IMG/VR virus record: IMGVR_UViG_3300033076_001145
Coordinates: 32,001 to 96,000 of that record
Reading direction: 5' to 3' (one strand)
Source: a virus
Taxonomy: Duplodnaviria; Caudoviricetes
DNA length: 64,000 bases
The position numbers and the translations under genes are program-made. The notes under the pieces are model-generated. The model had not been told where the DNA came from. It saw nothing but the letters and a program-made list of their open reading frames with translations, and ran no database searches. Of the stretch, positions 2,358 to 40,866 are shown one piece after another (position 1 is the first letter of the stretch; every line of letters begins with the position of its first letter).

Positions 2358-3264
2358 ATTCATTGTTTGTGGTGGCGCCGGATTTATTGGCTCAAACATG
2401 GTCGATTTTTTAATTGAATTGGGTCATAGTGTTGTTGTTGTAGATAATTTAAGTACAGGTATTCACACTAATCTTAATAAACATTGTATTTTTTATAATT
2501 TAGATTTATCAATTAAAGATAATATCAAAACATTAAAACATCTTTGTAATCATTACGATTATTTGATTCATATGGCAGCAAATCCAAATGTTCAAGGTTC
2601 AATTGATTTTCCGTTAGAAAGTAATGACAATAACTTTCAAACAACCTTAAATATTCTTGAGTCAATTCGAGACACTAAAATTAAAAAAATTGTATTTTCA
2701 AGTACATCCGCAGTATATGGAAATACTGAAAAATTCCCAACAGATGAAAAATCTGATTTGAATATATTATCACCATACGGTTTGCAAAAACTTATGTCTG
2801 AAAAATATATTGAACTGTATTCAAAAATATTTGGAATTAAAGGTGTTTGTTTAAGATATTTCAATGTATTTGGTAATCGTATGACAAATCACGGAGCCTA
2901 CAAATCGGTTATATCAATATTTCGAGAACAATATGGATTAGGTACCCCTCTAACAATAACTAATGACGGAAACCAACGAAGAGATTTTATACATGTTGGT
3001 GATGTTGTTATGGCAAATTATTTATCTTGTATTTCAGATACTGGTAATTTTGATATTTTTAACGTTGGGAGTGGTTCTAATATTTCAGTTAATGAAATTG
3101 CTAGTTACTTTTCACACCCTACCACTAACATTGGTCATAGAATTGAGCCGTTTATTTCACTTTGTGACAATTCTAAAATAAAAAAAATATTAGGGTGGGA
3201 ACCTAAAATAAATGTCCAAGATTGGTTAAAAAAAGAAATTAATGACAAGAAAGAAAACAACTAA
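2344..3264 (+). CDS. NAD-dependent epimerase/dehydratase (extended SDR)
   Basis: GGAGFIGS, SSTSAVYG, YxxxK (YGLQK), LRYFNVFG, RDFIHVGD. Confidence 0.9.
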   Translation: MKKFKFIVCGGAGFIGSNMVDFLIELGHSVVVVDNLSTGIHTNLNKHCIFYNLDLSIKDNIKTLKHLCNHYDYLIHMAANPNVQGSIDFPLESNDNNFQTTLNILESIRDTKIKKIVFSSTSAVYGNTEKFPTDEKSDLNILSPYGLQKLMSEKYIELYSKIFGIKGVCLRYFNVFGNRMTNHGAYKSVISIFREQYGLGTPLTITNDGNQRRDFIHVGDVVMANYLSCISDTGNFDIFNVGSGSNISVNEIASYFSHPTTNIGHRIEPFISLCDNSKIKKILGWEPKINVQDWLKKEINDKKENN

Positions 3265-32899: not shown

Positions 32900-34948
32900 A
32901 TGATAGAATCAATTGACGACGGAGGAAAAGGTAAAAAAGCAACCACAAGTTCTCAAACACCTGTTTTAGATAATTTTAGTCGTGACTTAATTAAACTTGC
33001 CGAAGAAGGTAAATTAGACCCTGTAGTTGGTAGGGAAAATGAGATTATTAGAATTGCTCAAATTTTGTCTCGTAGAAAGAAAAATAACCCAATTATTATT
33101 GGAGAACCTGGATGTGGAAAAACCGCAATCGTTGAGGGTCTTGCAATGAAAATTTTTGATGGGGATTGCCCAAGAAACTTATTAGAAAAAAGAATTTTGT
33201 CTTTGGATTTGAACTCAATAGTCGCTGGTACAAAATACAGAGGACAATTTGAGGAGAGGTTAAAGGTTATTTTGGAGGAATTACAGACAAATCCAAACAT
33301 CATTTTATTTATTGACGAAATTCACACCATTGTTGGGGCGGGTAATGCATCGGGTTCATTAGATGCTTCAAACATATTAAAACCAGCCCTTTCTCGTGGA
33401 GAAATTCAATGTATTGGAGCAACTACTTTAGACGAATACAAAAAACAAATTGAAAAAGATGGAGCTTTGGACCGAAGATTTCAAAAGGTTATTGTTTCTC
33501 CAGCATCCACAGATGAGACTTTAATTATTTTACAAAATGTAAAAGATAAGTATGAGAATTACCACAAGGTTAATTACTCTGATGAGGTATTGAAAACTTG
33601 TGTTGAACTTGCAGATAGATATATCACAGACCGAGAGTTCCCTGACAAGGCATTCGATATTTTGGATGAAGTAGGGGCAAGAGCTCAGGTCGATGTTAAA
33701 AATCCTGAGGTAATTGAGGAACTTAAAAAAGAATCTCAGGAAATTAAAGAACAAAAACTTTTAGTAGTTAAGAAACAAAACTATGAAATGGCCGCTGAAC
33801 TTAGAGACCGAGAAAAGAAAGTTTTGGGTAAGTTAGAGGTTGAGAAAAAGAAATTTGAAGAGGAATTAATTACCAAGAAAAAAGACATCGCAATTGAGTT
33901 AGTTTATGAAGTGGTTGCAAACATGACAAAGATTCCTGTAACCAAATTATCTTTAGATGATACAAAGAACTTAATCGATTTAGAGGATAGTCTTTCTGAT
34001 TCAGTAATTGGTCAAAAAGAGGCGGTTACCAAAATTGCAAAGGCGATTAGAAGAAATCGTTTGGGAATTAAAGACCCAAACAAACCAATCGGTTCATTTA
34101 TCTTCTTAGGTTCAACAGGGGTTGGTAAAACATTATTGGCAAAAGAACTTGCAAAACAAATATTTGGAAGTGAGGACAATTTAATTAGAGTGGATATGAG
34201 TGAGTTCCAAGAGAAACATTCTGTATCGAGATTAATTGGTTCTCCTCCCGGATATGTTGGGTATGATGAGGGAGGTCAATTGACTGAACAAGTTAAAAAC
34301 AAACCATATTCAGTAGTGTTATTCGATGAAGTTGAGAAAGCTCACAGAGATATTTTCTCATCATTACTACAAGTTTTGGATGAGGGTTATTTGACCGACA
34401 GTTTTGGAAGAAAAGTTAATTTTAAAAACTGTTTAATCATTATGACCTCAAACATCGGGGTTAGAAAATTACAGGAATTTGGTGCTGGCGTCGGATTTGG
34501 AACCTCAAACAATGTATATAAAAATGAAGAGGCGAAGAAATCGATTTTGATGAAAGAACTTAAATCTTATTTCGCACCTGAATTTGTAAATCGATTGGAT
34601 GAAATTATTGTATTCAACACATTAGGTGACGATGATGTTAAGAAAATTGTCAATGTTGAGATGAACAAGTTGGTGTCTCGTTTGACTAAGTTAAAGTATG
34701 ATATTACATTTGACCAAACTTGTATTGATTACATCTCCAAGGTTGGGTTTGATGAACAATACGGAGCCCGACCATTAAAGAGAGCAATACAAGAGAAATT
34801 TGAGGACTTTATCTCGGATGAAGTATTAAGAGAAAATATTTTAATTGAACAAAAATACACTATTTACATAGAAGATGAAACTGTTCAGATAAGACAAGAA
34901 CAACTCGAACAAAAAACAAAAAAACCAAGAAAAAAGAAGGGGGAATAA
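32900..34948 (+). CDS. clpC: ClpC-like AAA+ unfoldase lacking the N-terminal repeat domain
   Basis: Two AAA modules (GEPGCGKT/FIDEIH; GSTGVGKT/LFDEVEK), UVR-type middle domain (YEMAAELRD), VGF ClpP-docking loop. Confidence 0.9.
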   Translation: MIESIDDGGKGKKATTSSQTPVLDNFSRDLIKLAEEGKLDPVVGRENEIIRIAQILSRRKKNNPIIIGEPGCGKTAIVEGLAMKIFDGDCPRNLLEKRILSLDLNSIVAGTKYRGQFEERLKVILEELQTNPNIILFIDEIHTIVGAGNASGSLDASNILKPALSRGEIQCIGATTLDEYKKQIEKDGALDRRFQKVIVSPASTDETLIILQNVKDKYENYHKVNYSDEVLKTCVELADRYITDREFPDKAFDILDEVGARAQVDVKNPEVIEELKKESQEIKEQKLLVVKKQNYEMAAELRDREKKVLGKLEVEKKKFEEELITKKKDIAIELVYEVVANMTKIPVTKLSLDDTKNLIDLEDSLSDSVIGQKEAVTKIAKAIRRNRLGIKDPNKPIGSFIFLGSTGVGKTLLAKELAKQIFGSEDNLIRVDMSEFQEKHSVSRLIGSPPGYVGYDEGGQLTEQVKNKPYSVVLFDEVEKAHRDIFSSLLQVLDEGYLTDSFGRKVNFKNCLIIMTSNIGVRKLQEFGAGVGFGTSNNVYKNEEAKKSILMKELKSYFAPEFVNRLDEIIVFNTLGDDDVKKIVNVEMNKLVSRLTKLKYDITFDQTCIDYISKVGFDEQYGARPLKRAIQEKFEDFISDEVLRENILIEQKYTIYIEDETVQIRQEQLEQKTKKPRKKKGE

Positions 34949-34963
34949 ATCCCCCTTTTTTTT
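34937..34963. terminator. bidirectional terminator
   Basis: AAGGGGGA-ataaa-TCCCCC-T8 between convergent genes. Confidence 0.75.
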
Positions 34964-35777
34964 ATAAGTTATATTTTGAAACATGGTCAAATTTATATTT
35001 TTTATGACCTAGTTTTTCAATTAGTTTTTGACCAGTTCTTGTTCCCGCAAACACCTCATCAACCACCACATATTCATTTTTGGTGTGGTAGTTATGGTAA
35101 CCAACTGAAAAGTTAATACACGAAAAATCAAATTTCTTTTTTAACTGCCAAACATCTGTATATGGATGTTGCATGAATTTTGGTGAGGATAACATACCCT
35201 CAGTTAAAACTTCTCTTGCCGACTGATGAAATTCAGAATCAGTTTCAAATAGTTTCACACCAAAACAATACTCTGTAACCATATAGTCGTCAGGGGCGTC
35301 AAACTGAATTGCGTAACCAACATTTTCGAAGAACTTGGGGTCGGCTTCTTTTGACCCAATACAACCAACTTCTTCTGAAACAAAAAACGCAGCCTTTAAC
35401 ACATCAAATTCTTCGAGTAACTGAAGACATGCAAAGACACCACACTTGTCATCACCTCCAATCCCTGTTGGTTCCCCAAAGTCATTATATGCCTTTAAGG
35501 AATAACTTTTTTCTCCTTTTGAGTCGGGTAAAGATTCTTCTCTAATATTAATGGTGTCTAATGGATGAACAGTGTCGGTGTGAGCAACAACACAGGGGTA
35601 GAATTCTCCCTCACCAATAGTTCCTTTAGTAACATAAATGTTACCCAAATTATCAATATGGAAATCGTATTTTTTTTCCAACAAATAATCTGTTAGAAAT
35701 TCAATCATTTTGTCCTCATGAAATGAGTGGGTAGGAATAGATAAAACCTTCTTTAAAAAGTCAATATTTTCAATCAT
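34962..35777 (-). CDS. M20/M28-family zinc peptidase
   Basis: AHTDTV, GGDDKCG, SEEVGCIGS, QFD, GYHNYHT. Confidence 0.85.
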   Translation of the reverse strand: MIENIDFLKKVLSIPTHSFHEDKMIEFLTDYLLEKKYDFHIDNLGNIYVTKGTIGEGEFYPCVVAHTDTVHPLDTINIREESLPDSKGEKSYSLKAYNDFGEPTGIGGDDKCGVFACLQLLEEFDVLKAAFFVSEEVGCIGSKEADPKFFENVGYAIQFDAPDDYMVTEYCFGVKLFETDSEFHQSAREVLTEGMLSSPKFMQHPYTDVWQLKKKFDFSCINFSVGYHNYHTKNEYVVVDEVFAGTRTGQKLIEKLGHKKYKFDHVSKYNL

Positions 35778-35806
35778 AAAAACAAAGGTAATAAAAAAAT
35801 TAAATA

Positions 35807-36850
35807 TTAGAACAATTCAGGGTGAAATAAAAAATTTTTAAAATCTTCTAAATTCATTTTCATTTTTTGATTAGAAACCACAACAATAATTTTACCGTCT
35901 TCAACTTTACCTAACCTAAAAGTTTCACCAGTTTTAGTTCCGTAATTTTTTTCTTTAGGGAAATTATATGTCCGACCAAAATCATATCCCAATTTTCTAA
36001 CATAATTAATCAATTCAAAATTTTTCTGTAAGGAACCTTCTTCCAAATCATCAGTTAGTTTTTCATAAATTTTTTCTAACTCTCTTTCAACCTCTCTTTG
36101 GAAACCTTCATCATCAAAATTTTTGTCATCATAATACGCATAATAATCCTCATATAAATCATCATCAAAATATAAATCATTATCTTCGACATATTTTTTA
36201 AGACATTCTAGCATACTTTCGGAATCTTTATTAATATCATTTTCATCAAAGAAATCAATTAGTGCTTGAACGGTTGTAATATATGACTCGGCACATGTTT
36301 TTTCAAAAAAGTTAAGGTAGAAAAATTTATTACACAGTTTGGAAACCACATATTCTCTCATACCCCTAACTAATGCGATATCGTAATAAGACGCCCATTC
36401 ATAAGCAATTTGACTACAAGAATATTCATTAAGTTGTATTAATACCTTAGCAATTTCAGAATGGTCATCCGTTTTTTTAATATTTAAATCAGGTGATACC
36501 ATATCCAAAATCTTTTGGACAGTTTTATCATTTTCTTTATTAAAATATCTAAATATATATCCTTCTCTAAAATCATCGTCCGCATAACTAGAATCAATAA
36601 ATACATTATCACTATATCCATATCTTGAAAAGGCGACATTAATTAAGAATCTATTTTGGTCATATTCATTGTCAGGCATAAAAAGTCTAACATAATCCTC
36701 TTCATAAAAACTAAGTAATACAATACTTTTTCCGAGACTTTTTTCATTAACATGTGTGATTCGAACTACTCTGTCATCATCCGAATGTTTAACAGATATT
36801 TCATCGGCTTCACCTTTTATGAATAATTCTAATTCTTTATATATTGACAC
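35807..36850 (-). CDS. hypothetical acidic protein
   Basis: 347-aa ORF, GTG start, TATTTAT upstream. Confidence 0.7.
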   Translation of the reverse strand: MSIYKELELFIKGEADEISVKHSDDDRVVRITHVNEKSLGKSIVLLSFYEEDYVRLFMPDNEYDQNRFLINVAFSRYGYSDNVFIDSSYADDDFREGYIFRYFNKENDKTVQKILDMVSPDLNIKKTDDHSEIAKVLIQLNEYSCSQIAYEWASYYDIALVRGMREYVVSKLCNKFFYLNFFEKTCAESYITTVQALIDFFDENDINKDSESMLECLKKYVEDNDLYFDDDLYEDYYAYYDDKNFDDEGFQREVERELEKIYEKLTDDLEEGSLQKNFELINYVRKLGYDFGRTYNFPKEKNYGTKTGETFRLGKVEDGKIIVVVSNQKMKMNLEDFKNFLFHPELF

Positions 36851-36890: not shown

Positions 36891-36904
36891 TATTTATATA
36901 TTTG
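36891..36904 (+). promoter_or_regulatory. overlapping TATTTAT and TAnnTTTG motifs upstream of the tmRNA
   Basis: TATTTATATATTTG, about 25 nt before the mature 5' end. Confidence 0.55.
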
Positions 36905-37020
36905 TAAAACAATAGTTCTTTGATTTATGGGGATGTTTTTGGCTTTGACAGGAATGGATTAGTCATAAAACGCACGTCGGGGCTAAGCTAACCCTGTTTA
37001 ACTGGCTTGAATTTTTAAAC

Positions 37021-37086
37021 GGCAACGTAATCAACAAACTTTCTACAATCGGTTTAATCCGTACTGAAGAAGTATCTGTAGCTTAA
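37021..37086 (+). other. tmRNA tag reading frame (A)GNVINKLSTIGLIRTEEVSVA*
   Basis: Resume codon GGC follows pk1 and TAAAC; ends GCT TAA. Confidence 0.75.
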
Positions 37087-37302
37087 TCTAGGATTAACCT
37101 ACTAGGGGTCGGCAGACATATAACCTTGCAACAGAAGTCGTAGTTGTGGTGTGGTTTCTACCCAAAAAGAAACAAAGTGGAGGATTAGTTCTCAGTAAAC
37201 CGAACCACTATAAAATAAGGGAATTGTGAAGTTTCGGATTGTTTAGAAAAACAATGACCTAAGCGTGTAGTGTTTTATGTCAGACTTTTTTGGACCCGGG
37301 TT

Positions 37303-37530
37303 TAATGTTGGACCCATAACATAGTAATGTGTTATTAAAAATCGGAAGAATTCAGTGGACTCTTAACAGGTAATGCTGATGACAATACTGAGCCGAGCCT
37401 CGCAGGAAGAGGAAGGTGCAGAGACTAGTGGGATTTAGACGCTTCTAATGTAATACCACACAAGAATCCGACACCCTACATTTGAGGGTGATGATATAGT
37501 CCAGTTAGTAAGGAAACTTATTATGTTTAG
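37303..37530 (+). mobile_element. group I intron (228 nt, no ORF) in the tmRNA T-loop
   Basis: P1 GGGUU/GACCC with U.G at the 5' splice site; P10 GUUG/CGAC; R element CAGAGACTA; S element GATATAGTCC; terminal G37530. Confidence 0.92.
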
Positions 37531-37554
37531 CGACCCCCGGCATCTCCACCATTT

Positions 37555-37586
37555 AATAAAGGGACTTCGGTCCCTTTATTTTTTTT
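37555..37586 (+). terminator. terminator after the tmRNA
   Basis: AATAAAGGGAC-ttcg-GTCCCTTTATT-T6. Confidence 0.85.
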
Positions 37587-37613
37587 CATATATTTTAATA
37601 TTTAATATTATAT

Positions 37614-38447
37614 ATGGACGCAGACAAAGTATTTAAAATTGCAAAAAAGATGTCAGATGACGAATTTGAAGGTTACACACCAACTGAGGTATTTCGTTAT
37701 TTCGTATCAACAAGTGAGGAAACAATAGTTTATGATTTCCTAACACCAAAAGAATTTATTCTATTTTGTTTTTTAGTCCATAGAATTTCTAACAAACTAA
37801 GTGTTACTGATGTAAATAATAATTTTGATAGACTAATTGCATATTCTTATATTGAAATTACTGAATTAGACCCAGAAGTAGAGTGTGAGCATTGTGATGG
37901 TTCAGGTGAAGTGAGTTGTAGTGATTGTAGCGGCAGTGGAAATGAATATTGTGATGAATGTAATGGAAATGGAGGTGTGGATTGTGATGAATGTGATGGT
38001 ACTGGAGAAGATGAAGAAGGTAACACATGTCGAAACTGTGATGGTGATGGTTCCGTTGATTGTAAAGAATGTGGGGGTAGTGGTAGTTTTTCTTGTCAAG
38101 AATGTGGGGGTAGTGGCGAAGAGAAATGTTATAAATGTGACGATGGTTATATAACTAAGGACGGATATTACTCGGCTACTCAGTTTTTTGTAGTAACGAT
38201 AGACCCAAAAATTTTTTCAGATATTGTCTATTATGAAAAAATGGATGTTTTACCTGAATCATTGTTACCGTCAACAAACATTAATTCAATTTTGGTTAAA
38301 CAAGATAATCATTCACCATGTGATGATATTGAAGAAGAAATAGAAACAGGTGATTTATATTTTATAGGTTCAGATACTGATACTAACATATCAATGTATA
38401 AAACACGCAGAGGTATAGATATTGCAACTATAGAAGATATCTGTTAA
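37614..38447 (+). CDS. DnaJ-like cysteine-rich zinc-finger protein (no J domain)
   Basis: Seven CxxCxGxG repeats plus CYKCDDG; no HPD motif. Confidence 0.8.
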   Translation: MDADKVFKIAKKMSDDEFEGYTPTEVFRYFVSTSEETIVYDFLTPKEFILFCFLVHRISNKLSVTDVNNNFDRLIAYSYIEITELDPEVECEHCDGSGEVSCSDCSGSGNEYCDECNGNGGVDCDECDGTGEDEEGNTCRNCDGDGSVDCKECGGSGSFSCQECGGSGEEKCYKCDDGYITKDGYYSATQFFVVTIDPKIFSDIVYYEKMDVLPESLLPSTNINSILVKQDNHSPCDDIEEEIETGDLYFIGSDTDTNISMYKTRRGIDIATIEDIC

Positions 38448-38456
38448 GAAAACTAG

Positions 38457-38530
38457 TACCCCCGACACGATTCGAACGTGTGACCCACAACTTAGAAGGT
38501 TGTTGCTCTATCCAGCTGAGCTACGAGGGC
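38457..38530 (-). tRNA. tRNA-Arg(UCU), CCA not encoded
   Basis: GCCCTCG TAGCTCAGCTGGATAGAGC ACAAC-CTTCTAA-GTTGT ... ACACG-TTCGAAT-CGTGT CGGGGGT A; A20 present; TATCTTTG upstream. Confidence 0.95.
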
Positions 38531-38568
38531 ATTTTTGTTCTACAAAGATAATATAAATTTAGATATTA

Positions 38569-38742
38569 TCAAATTTTTTTGATAACATATCTATAACCTG
38601 AGTCAGAATTCATTTGAAGAATACTACACATTTCATTAGCTTGTTCTTCCTTTTCAAATTCCAAAACTTCATCTTGTGAGTTTAGAATGATTACAGGTAA
38701 TTCTTTTTTATCTATCTTGATATATTTTACAATACAGTACAT
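38569..38742 (-). CDS. 57-aa hypothetical protein (not in the ORF track)
   Basis: MYCIVKYIKIDKKELPVIILNSQDEVLEFEKEEQANEMCSILQMNSDSGYRYVIKKI*. Confidence 0.55.
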   Translation of the reverse strand: MYCIVKYIKIDKKELPVIILNSQDEVLEFEKEEQANEMCSILQMNSDSGYRYVIKKI

Positions 38743-38745
38743 ATT

Positions 38746-38856
38746 TTATCCTATTGAATATTCACTATTAAAATTATCCCATTCGTCCTCAGTCCAATGT
38801 GGTCTGTTCTCAACCTGATTATTTATCATTTCTTGGTCTTTAACTTTCGGGTCCAT
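38746..38856 (-). CDS. 36-aa hypothetical peptide (not in the ORF track)
   Basis: MDPKVKDQEMINNQVENRPHWTEDEWDNFNSEYSIG*; stops 3 nt before the next ATG. Confidence 0.4.
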   Translation of the reverse strand: MDPKVKDQEMINNQVENRPHWTEDEWDNFNSEYSIG

Positions 38857-38980
38857 AATAATACTTAAATATGTGAATTTTATTCTTTATTGTCAATGTA
38901 CTGATATAAATAATTATTGATAAATAAAAAAATAAAAAAAAATTTGTCAATTAATAAATTATTTTGTAATTTTACATATT

Positions 38981-39472
38981 ATGACACAAGGTGTATTGGT
39001 TTTAAATTCAGATTTCAGTCCTATTAATGTAACAACCCTACATAGAGGTTTCGCATTAGTTTATAAAGGAAAGGCGGAGATTCTCAAATCTTCCGATGAG
39101 CCAATAGTATGCGGAATTAAACAATATATAAGACCACTAATCATACGATTACTTTCTTATGTTAGTTTTAAGAGAAGAAAAATAAGAGTAAATCGACATA
39201 GAATTATGAGACGAGATGGATACTCTTGTGTTTATTGTGGTAGTAAAAAAGATTTAACAATTGACCATGTTATTCCAAAGTCAAAAGGTGGTGATAACAC
39301 TTGGAAGAATCTTGTAACATGTTGTAGTCCTTGTAATTTAAAAAAGGGTGATAAATTATTACATGAGACAAATATGAATATGATAAAAAAACCCACAGAA
39401 CCTAATATATTTTCGGACTCTGCGGGTCAATATTTACAGAAAGTTTGGAATGAATTCCAAAATAGTTTTTAA
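38981..39472 (+). CDS. HNH endonuclease (McrA-like)
   Basis: VLVLN.DF.P, RDGYSCVYCG...LTIDHVIPKSKGG..TWKNLVTCC..CN..KGD. Confidence 0.9.
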   Translation: MTQGVLVLNSDFSPINVTTLHRGFALVYKGKAEILKSSDEPIVCGIKQYIRPLIIRLLSYVSFKRRKIRVNRHRIMRRDGYSCVYCGSKKDLTIDHVIPKSKGGDNTWKNLVTCCSPCNLKKGDKLLHETNMNMIKKPTEPNIFSDSAGQYLQKVWNEFQNSF

Positions 39473-40866
39473 ACTAAATCGTCTGAACCTAAGATTTGAG
39501 GAATAACACTATTTCTCATATCTTGGGACAGAGACGTTACATTATCCATTGTATTTGTTAAAATAGGACAAACAATTTGAGATATTTTAACCATTAATGT
39601 TTCTTTGGTGTTCTGTGATTGAATTTGTTGAGTTAAAACATTTTGAACAACACCCATTAAATCATCTCCAGTTGTTGTTGGAAATTCAGAAATGATTGTT
39701 GGAGCAATTGCTGAAACTATAACATTTGAAACGGCATTACAATCAAAGAAAACATCAACAACTTTATCATCTGGCGTTGACATTAATTCATCCTTAATTG
39801 TTTTACCAATATCAGATGTCGTTGAGACATTTAGTTTAGACAAAAGGTTATCAATGTACTTTTCTTTGAACCCTCCTTCCAATCCTGCATAAACTACTGA
39901 AAATGCATTTTTGAACGTGGAGTCAACACTCTCATTTAAAGATGAATTAACGACAAATTTTCCCATTGATTTGTAAAATTTATTATATCTTCTGCCTTCA
40001 AAATCCTCATTCATTTTAAAAAGAGTTCTGACCATTTTAACTTCATCAATCTTTTTATTATTTTTTATTTTTTTCAATTTTTCAACAATTGTGTTTTTCA
40101 TAACTTTTCCTTCTTTAATTGTTTTTAATTTCTTTGTTAAAGTTTCTTTGACAGTCTCTTTAATCTCATTTGGGAATTTTAATTTGTCTTCATTAAAGAA
40201 AACTTCACCTCTAGTTTGATTATTCATAACGTTTTTTTTGATTAGGAAATTGACCGCCGGCATCTCATGTAATCTCCAACCTTCAGGTGATTTTTGTAAT
40301 CCTCCCGTATACATAGCCCACAATGTTTTTTCATCACATTGCTCATCCATTATTCTACCAAAATCCCAAACATTGCCAAATCGTTTAATAAAATAATCCA
40401 AAAACCTTTTTGCGGCTTTATCCAAAAACTCATCTTTATAATGTGTTTTGAAAAAATTCTCGGGAGATGTGTCAGGATAACAAGTAATTGGAACTGTTTT
40501 ACTTTTATAATCAACTTTAACTGCGGGTTGTATTTCAGCCTTTGGTTTTTCAGGGGCGGTTTTTGGTGTTTCAGGTTGAGTCTTGCCATCAACCTTTTTT
40601 TTAGATTCATCTTTGGATTTATGAGTATCATTTAAAGTTTGTAATGTTTCCGGCTTCCATGTACTATTTCCAATTTTAAAATTATTACCTTCCCATTTCC
40701 AGCTACCTGTATTACCATCTTTTACCGCTCTTGTGTCATCAAATATTTTATATATTTTTGATTTATCACTTTTAGCAAAATGAAAGTCATATTGAGTATC
40801 ACTTTTTTTTTCAAAAGTACCAGGGTACTTTTTGAATTTTCTAATATCGTCAACTTTAAATGCCAT
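39469..40866 (-). CDS. hypothetical protein with internal leader-like segment
   Basis: IKETVKETL..IKEG...LNES sites in the centre. Confidence 0.65.
   Translation of the reverse strand: MAFKVDDIRKFKKYPGTFEKKSDTQYDFHFAKSDKSKIYKIFDDTRAVKDGNTGSWKWEGNNFKIGNSTWKPETLQTLNDTHKSKDESKKKVDGKTQPETPKTAPEKPKAEIQPAVKVDYKSKTVPITCYPDTSPENFFKTHYKDEFLDKAAKRFLDYFIKRFGNVWDFGRIMDEQCDEKTLWAMYTGGLQKSPEGWRLHEMPAVNFLIKKNVMNNQTRGEVFFNEDKLKFPNEIKETVKETLTKKLKTIKEGKVMKNTIVEKLKKIKNNKKIDEVKMVRTLFKMNEDFEGRRYNKFYKSMGKFVVNSSLNESVDSTFKNAFSVVYAGLEGGFKEKYIDNLLSKLNVSTTSDIGKTIKDELMSTPDDKVVDVFFDCNAVSNVIVSAIAPTIISEFPTTTGDDLMGVVQNVLTQQIQSQNTKETLMVKISQIVCPILTNTMDNVTSLSQDMRNSVIPQILGSDDLV

Follow-up and report, generated by a model that had tools for sequence, protein, structure and literature searches.

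How can a phage keep a gene for tmRNA, the RNA of trans-translation, when the T loop of its tRNA-like part is broken by more than two hundred inserted nucleotides, and is such a gene a working one, a dead one, or not a phage gene at all? The question is raised by a locus on the window, by which we mean the whole 64,000-nucleotide stretch of DNA analysed here, bases 32001-96000 of the 208,634-bp IMG/VR virus record IMGVR_UViG_3300033076_001145 (CheckV completeness 71%). A preliminary description, made from the letters of the window, read the locus as a phage tmRNA whose T loop is split by a group I intron lacking an endonuclease ORF, considered such cases to be rare, and proposed to check the insert with the Rfam group I model, by the folding of its P3-P7 core and by comparison with intron-less alleles of relatives. 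It also named Clostridium botulinum as the precedent for an intron in this place, and that is indeed where an intron-form tmRNA was first seen (PMC11915505). The supposed rarity is outdated, as 883 unique intron-form sequences are now catalogued from 21 bacterial phyla; the intron always occupies one of four subsites of the T loop, and endonuclease genes are present in only 4.1% of the cases (PMC11915505). One of these subsites, "position 3", is known from nine Bacteroidota genomes only, all of the class Bacteroidia (PMC11915505). RefSeq viruses were among the genomes collected for the catalogue, which does not mention phage intron forms and has a phylum table without virus rows (PMC11915505). 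Phages with an uninterrupted tmRNA are known from the huge phages, where the genes were found with ARAGORN (PMC7162821), and from mycobacteriophage DS6A, whose tmRNA is of the CDS-less form, as cited in the catalogue paper (PMC11915505). In the literature that we searched, no paper describing an intron-split phage tmRNA was found.

Results

Layout of the split gene

In the window, the Rfam tmRNA model (RF00023) matches positions 36938-37300 on the plus strand with 66.1 bits (E = 1.5e-23, above the gathering score), and the match ends before the 3' strand of the T arm and the acceptor. Abutting it on the same strand is a match of the group I intron model (RF00028, Intron_gpI) at 37293-37523, with 71.4 bits over a threshold of 50 and E = 3.8e-16, which covers model positions 1-253, that is, the whole model, so that the proposed Rfam check of the insert turned out positive. 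Both matches are far beyond chance. The gene lies about 69 kb inwards of the 208 kb of the record, and the coordinates of its parts and of its neighbours are collected in Table 1.

Excision in silico of 37303-37530 joins ...GGACCCGGGUU to CGACCCCCGGCAUCUCCACCA and, as the preliminary description had it, rebuilds the T arm and an alanine acceptor with CCA. The T stem becomes CCGGG (37296-37300) with CCCGG (37536-37540) and the T loop UU|CGACC, while the acceptor becomes GGGGAUG/CAUCUCC with the alanine identity pair G3.U70 formed by G36931 and U37545, followed by the discriminator A and CCA. The insertion point falls between bases 2 and 3 of the seven-base T loop, and no alternative boundary yields a loop of 7 nt together with a U at -1 and a terminal G. 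If the internucleotide sites 1-8 of the published catalogue are counted from the stem-loop junction, this subsite would be its "position 3" (PMC11915505).

About 30 bases upstream of the 5' end of the tmRNA (ATTTGTAA..TAGTTCTTTGATTTAT, window 36900-36928) are near-identical to positions 3060-3089 of the intron-less relative L107 described below. No promoter of the sigma-70 type was found in this stretch, which may hold a promoter of another type.

Table 1. Features of the split tmRNA locus and of its surroundings (window coordinates)
Feature	Position	Strand	Remarks
Two-ring Clp/Hsp100 ATPase, ClpA/B/C-like	32900-34948	+	Pfam and NCBIfam; VGF loop at aa 531-533
M20-like peptidase	34962-35777		Upstream of tmRNA
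tmRNA exon 1	36929-37302	+	Acceptor 5' strand, D-loop analogue, P2, PK1, tag frame, PK2-PK4 region, T-stem 5' strand, T-loop bases 1-2
PK1	36979-37009	+	GGGG/CCCU and UAAGCUA/UGGCUUG; 7 of 11 pairs change on both sides across the family
Tag frame	37021-37086	+	Resume codon GGC at 37021, 21 codons (GNVINKLSTIGLIRTEEVSVA), stop TAA at 37084-37086
Stop-codon hairpin	37078-37102	+	10 pairs, 5 with double changes
PK2-region motif	37106-37137	+	GGGTCG..ACCTNGNAACAGNAG; characteristic of the phage tmRNA family; found in at least 119 contigs of IMG/VR
Group I intron	37303-37530	+	228 nt, ORF-less; RF00028, covariation and indel relative to L107
P1	37298-37315 (including exon)	+	G37298-U37302 pairs with G37311-C37315; splice-site pair U37302.G37311
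P2	37316-37335	+	Intron helix
P3	37342-37346/37467-37471	+	Intron helix
P4-P6	37352-37416	+	Intron helices
P7	37423-37427/37497-37501	+	GACUA/UAGUC
P7.1-P7.2	37428-37459	+	Extra helices between P7 and P3'
P8	37472-37490	+	Intron helix
P9	37507-37522	+	Intron helix
omega-G	37530	+	Last intron base
tmRNA exon 2	37531-37551	+	Last five T-loop bases, T-stem 3' strand, acceptor 3' strand, ACCA
Intrinsic terminator	37555-37586	+	11-bp stem, UUCG loop, T run; 4 nt past CCA; kept in L107
Mobile cassette	37598-39475		1.9 kb: 277-aa CxxC zinc-finger ORF, tRNA-Arg(UCU) on the minus strand, HNH gene
Free-standing HNH endonuclease	38981-39472	+	PHROG and Pfam HNH; 1.45 kb downstream of tmRNA

Relatives with the intron

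We scanned IMG/VR with a pattern that describes the J8/7-P7 strand, the terminal G of the intron and the second exon of this subsite (GATATAGTC, then 15-45 bases, GCGA, 11 bases and TCCACCA). It matches in 25 contigs, all of the same split design, which hold 22 full-length genes of 604-644 nt, 19 of them distinct; since the pattern required the omega-G and the CCA, the conservation of both among the 19 homologues is by construction. By tblastx, 24 of the 25 contigs have neighbouring genes in common with the window phage, and we are therefore dealing with a clade of related large phages and not with scattered contamination. The same pattern gave 55 matches in 185,579 bacterial and archaeal species genomes, all of them chance matches in coding DNA, none with a P7 partner, a T arm or an acceptor stem, where about 34 chance matches are expected from the size of the collection.

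The relatives vary in detail. In L108 and L167 the 5' splice site stands one base earlier, after GGGU; the second exon of L136 ends in ACCG, without a complete encoded CCA; L163 has an A at the terminal-G position of the intron; and in L139 the intron core is present, outside the mapping by the search patterns.

Fold of the intron

The structure of the intron from P1 to P9 was written from the Rfam alignment and by hand, and was tallied on the 19 tmRNA introns and two related tRNA introns. Over its 63 pairs 93.7% of the cells are paired, against 35-44% in slid controls; 34 of the pairs show double changes, the covariation score is 0.397 (0.06-0.10 in the slid controls), and none of 500 shuffles matches the structure on any of five measures. 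The core helices from P3 to P7, the folding of which had been proposed as a check, pair and covary in the homologues, with P7 and part of P3 and P6 invariant and so neutral as evidence. Folded alone by minimum free energy, the intron does no significantly better than its shuffles (z = -1.58), and the evidence for its fold is therefore comparative and not thermodynamic. Of the nine pairs in P7.1 and P7.2, six change on both sides, and the presence of these helices places the intron in subgroup IA.

The landmarks on which the preliminary description relied, namely the splice-site pair U37302.G37311 in P1, a complementarity for P10, the P7 strands GACUA/UAGUC and the terminal G, are all found in the positions given for them. 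At -1 all 19 distinct rows, two tRNA introns included, have the U.G pair. The candidate P10, in which GUUG (37307-37310) would be able to pair with CGAC of the second exon (37531-37534), is plausible in this sequence, shows little covariation and has weak comparative support. No ORF within the intron is longer than 21 aa, in agreement with the earlier statement that the insert encodes no endonuclease.

Fold and tag of the mature tmRNA

The spliced RNA has what is expected of a tmRNA: the G3.U70 pair, PK1, a tag frame with a resume codon, and a stop codon in a hairpin. Tallied over 54 pairs of the acceptor, P2, PK1, the stop hairpin and the T stem, 81.8% of the cells are paired compared with 40-50% when the strands are slid, and 28 of the pairs carry compensatory (double) changes. 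The T stem, whose strands lie on the two sides of the intron, has standard pairs in 98.9% of the cells in 19 sequences, and two of its positions covary, giving the types GAGGG/CCCTC, CTGGG/CCCAG, GTGGG/CCCAC, CGGGG/CCCCG, GCGGG/CCCGC and CCGGG/CCCGG. The alanine identity pair is present in all 19 intron-bearing sequences.

The tag GNVINKLSTIGLIRTEEVSVA was called by ARAGORN on the intron-less L107 and on the in-silico-spliced L018. Among 57 distinct family members with a 21-codon tag, three residues never vary, namely G1, G11 and A21, each written with 2-4 codons; L12, V18 and V20, with 7-9 codons each, are almost constant; and the two other frames of the region hold stops in 53-55 of the 57 members. 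As the residues stay the same through varied codons and the other frames are closed, the frame is conserved as protein, and, judging from these codons, the 21-residue tag is under protein-level conservation across the phage tmRNA family. Two Bacteroidota MAG tmRNAs have tags of 9 residues (GNTQYAMAA and GNNNYALAA) and lack the PK2 motif of the family, which is present in none of 401 sampled Bacteroidota genomes. Among GenBank phages no relative of the first exon was found, only the intron core being matched. In the 208-kb record, of 71% completeness, a search for SmpB (PF01668) gave no match; the phage tmRNA presumably uses the SmpB of its host.

ARAGORN itself reported no tmRNA on the window, on the unspliced gene or on the spliced gene, lowered thresholds included, and with -ps60 only a spurious permuted call. 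We do not count this miss against the gene, because the same program calls its close relatives L018 and L107.

The intron-less allele and the distribution of the intron

A scan of IMG/VR with the exon motif GGGTCG..ACCTNGNAACAGNAG found the family in at least 119 viral contigs, and among the matches listed most are uninterrupted tmRNAs of the same family. The most instructive of them, L107 (IMGVR_UViG_3300032240_002466), has a first exon about 95% identical to that of the window, an identical tag, and a closely similar upstream flank and terminator. Aligned with the window, it shows a clean gap of 228 nt at GGGTT^CGA, the same point as the inferred insertion, so that the proposed comparison with an intron-less allele gave a difference of exactly the insert. 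As a complete tmRNA, L107 scores 138.3 bits (E = 5.8e-56) over the whole Rfam model and can serve as a proxy for the spliced product. Directly beside the insertion site the two alleles differ, with the T stem CGGGG/CCCCG and T loop UUCGAAC in L107 versus CCGGG/CCCGG and UUCGACC in the window.

On a maximum-likelihood tree of 68 distinct mature tmRNAs, well-supported branches force at least 8 gains or losses of the intron, and intron-bearing and intron-less sequences stand as sister rows (window and L018 vs L107, L032 vs L134, L012 vs L153, L030 vs L113). The sequence types of the intron track the exon clades. From this pattern, repeated precise loss and homing among near relatives are both possible.

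Relation to other introns and to other tmRNAs

The gene is like a bacterial intron-form tmRNA in being of one piece, in the interruption of the T loop, in the U.G at -1 of P1, in the terminal G, the P7.1 region and the lack, shared with most bacterial cases, of an endonuclease ORF, and unlike it in being phage-borne, with exons of a phage-only tmRNA family that has a 21-residue tag. It shares with the tmRNAs of huge phages and of DS6A that the phage carries its own trans-translation RNA, but it is split and was missed by ARAGORN. Group I introns in the anticodon loops of tRNAs, of which 21 classes are described (bioRxiv 10.1101/2020.01.27.920355), for example in cyanobacterial and plastid tRNA-Leu(UAA) and in tRNA-fMet, are likewise small, ORF-less and seated in a loop of a tRNA-shaped RNA, whereas the loop in our case is the T loop.

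The nearest relatives of the intron in GenBank phages are introns in the tRNA(CAU) of Klebsiella phage Muenster and E. coli phage Turkey5, with 70-74% identity over about 200 nt. They score 104 and 95 bits in Rfam, and their exons, uncalled by the intron mode of ARAGORN, were read by eye. In both phages (Muenster, L006 ~1440-1749, MT708547.1 ~302826-303135; Turkey5, L007, PQ471516.1) this tRNA(CAU) is unannotated, lies in a tRNA cluster and is split after the anticodon. An IA-type core is also common to the introns in protein genes of phages (T4 td, nrdB and nrdD; those of Staphylococcus phages Twort and K-like), and in the P3-P7 region the intron has 77-79% identity, over about 80 nt, with introns of Staphylococcus phages. 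Phage introns of the T4 and Twort type interrupt mRNAs, and introns in protein-coding genes of phages often carry ORFs for homing endonucleases; the intron of the window, by contrast, is ORF-less and interrupts a structural RNA.

A second group I intron of this phage, 198 nt long (54 bits in Rfam, called in the intron mode of ARAGORN), lies outside the window in a tRNA-Leu(UAA) gene (G000:C1:151062-151345, minus strand), where it follows U34, the classic cyanobacterial and plastid site. We considered the tmRNA intron as a close copy of it and rejected this idea, as only 36 nt of the core align, with 81% identity.

Genomic surroundings

Upstream of the tmRNA, about half of the related loci (at least 49-55 of the 104 fetched) have the order Clp/Hsp100 ATPase, M20-like peptidase, 347-aa ORF of unknown function and tmRNA (window 32900-36850), and the ATPase is present in 49 of the 104. 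The phage also has a gene for ClpP (G000:C1:167371-167898) and about 30 tRNA genes. This arrangement suggests a phage-run module of rescue and degradation with a private 21-residue tag, in which the tag would be linked to the Clp proteins. As a query for relatives, the 347-aa ORF gave no matches.

Downstream, the HNH gene that the preliminary description had placed 1.4 kb away is present (1.45 kb by our measure) and is the last gene of the 1.9-kb cassette of Table 1. The cassette is 96% identical in another record, L009 (IMGVR_UViG_3300011337_000716), with unrelated flanks and no tmRNA at that place, and is therefore a mobile cassette of its own. In the window it was apparently inserted directly behind the tmRNA terminator. 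With the 277-aa ORF as a query, only L009 was found, by way of the shared cassette and not of a tmRNA. HNH homologues stand 1.4-4.4 kb from the tmRNA in 7 of 26 intron-bearing loci vs 1 of 51 classified intron-less loci, counts that come from two or three clades and from unequal flanks. The sole intron-less locus with such a homologue is L107, where it is 4 kb away.

Discussion

From the analysis given above, the locus is very probably a working tmRNA gene of the one-piece kind, carried by an uncultured jumbo phage and interrupted in its T loop by a group I intron of type IA, 228 nt long and ORF-less, for which we propose self-splicing. The anatomy of the gene, the conserved and covarying fold of both intron and tmRNA, the covariation of the exons across the intron, the intron-less allele and the patchy distribution are observed, and the core of the preliminary description has been strengthened in this way by the Rfam matches, by covariation in 19 unique homologues and in the T stem, and by L107.

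We suggest that the gene would be transcribed as one unit, ending at the terminator 4 nt behind the CCA. The intron would then fold so that P1 presents U37302.G37311, P10 aligns the 3' exon and P7, as may be expected, binds guanosine, and it would excise itself, joining U37302 to C37531. The T arm and the acceptor stem would be formed only after splicing, and as both are absent before it, charging with alanine through G3.U70, binding of SmpB and entry into stalled ribosomes would depend on splicing. Inactivity of the unspliced RNA follows from the anatomy; the gating of tmRNA activity by splicing that the preliminary description proposed is a weaker supposition, if regulation is meant by it. 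The spliced RNA, served by factors of the host, would add the tag (A)GNVINKLSTIGLIRTEEVSVA.

That the intron is a decayed remnant which no longer splices, and the tmRNA gene a pseudogene, could be read from the relative L163, with its A in place of the omega-G, and from the failure of ARAGORN to see the gene. We hold this to be very unlikely, because compensatory changes maintain the core helices in 19 unique sequences, the exon halves covary across the insert with G3.U70 invariant, and the tag frame is open and conserved as protein, none of which is expected of a dead gene. Still less credit can be given to the view that the tmRNA belongs to a bacterial host and came into the record through a prophage end, a misassembly or misbinning. 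It is true that tmRNA genes are common integration sites, that the published T-loop introns of "position 3" are all assigned to Bacteroidia (PMC11915505), and that the tags of the Bacteroidota MAG tmRNAs likewise start with GN. The gene, however, is deep within a 208-kb virus record, with phage synteny on both sides in many contigs; true cases number 25 in viral contigs and none among the 55 chance matches in 185,579 species genomes; the PK2 motif was met in 0 of the 401 sampled Bacteroidota genomes; and the tag, with its 21 residues, does not resemble those of the two Bacteroidota MAGs examined, which have 9.

A different matter, which bears on mobility only and not on the identity of the element, is whether the intron spreads actively within this phage lineage, into the tmRNA alleles that lack it in co-infecting phages, aided in trans by a free-standing endonuclease, for which the neighbouring HNH gene is a candidate. 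Trans homing by a free-standing HNH enzyme is documented for mobE of T4 (PMC2790892). In keeping with such mobility are the tree of 68 tmRNAs, with its minimum of 8 gains or losses and its intron-bearing and intron-less sister rows, the differences in T stem and T loop beside the insertion site between the window and L107, which are such as a co-conversion tract would leave, and the more frequent HNH homologues at intron-bearing loci (7/26 against 1/51). On the other side, the HNH gene sits in a cassette that is found 96% identical in L009 without a neighbouring tmRNA, the intron-less L107 has an HNH homologue 4 kb away as well, the co-occurrence was counted over no more than two or three clades and over unequal flanks, and intron types that follow the exon clades would be explained equally well by vertical descent in which the intron was repeatedly and precisely lost. 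Active homing of this kind seems to us rather improbable on balance.

We may go even further and suppose that the T-loop intron after the second base is essentially phage-borne and is moved among co-infecting jumbo phages by free-standing nucleases that cut intron-less T-arm DNA, that the "Bacteroidia position 3" entries are phage contigs binned into MAGs, and that the adjacent ClpC-like unfoldase of the phage, together with the phage ClpP, recognizes the private tag of 21 residues in a phage-run route of tagging and degradation. Taken together, as one proposal, these suppositions are a long shot, and we put them forward as a speculation only.

Returning to the split phage tmRNA as such, the form of the gene is one known from bacteria, and its phage member is well supported. 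What is known of how such introns or tmRNAs work is unchanged by it. The intron-form tmRNA gene, catalogued so far in bacteria, is now seen in phages, and not as a single occurrence, since an entire lineage has it, represented by at least 25 contigs and by 19 distinct sequences. Standard annotation of phages overlooks genes of this kind, ARAGORN, the tool of the huge-phage survey, being blank here. Pairs of alleles of the type of the window and L107 provide a natural system for the invasion of a structured-RNA gene by a group I intron and for the exit from it, and they are also suited to asking whether free-standing nucleases drive these events. Finally, the rare "position 3" class in the tmRNA database may have its origin in phages.
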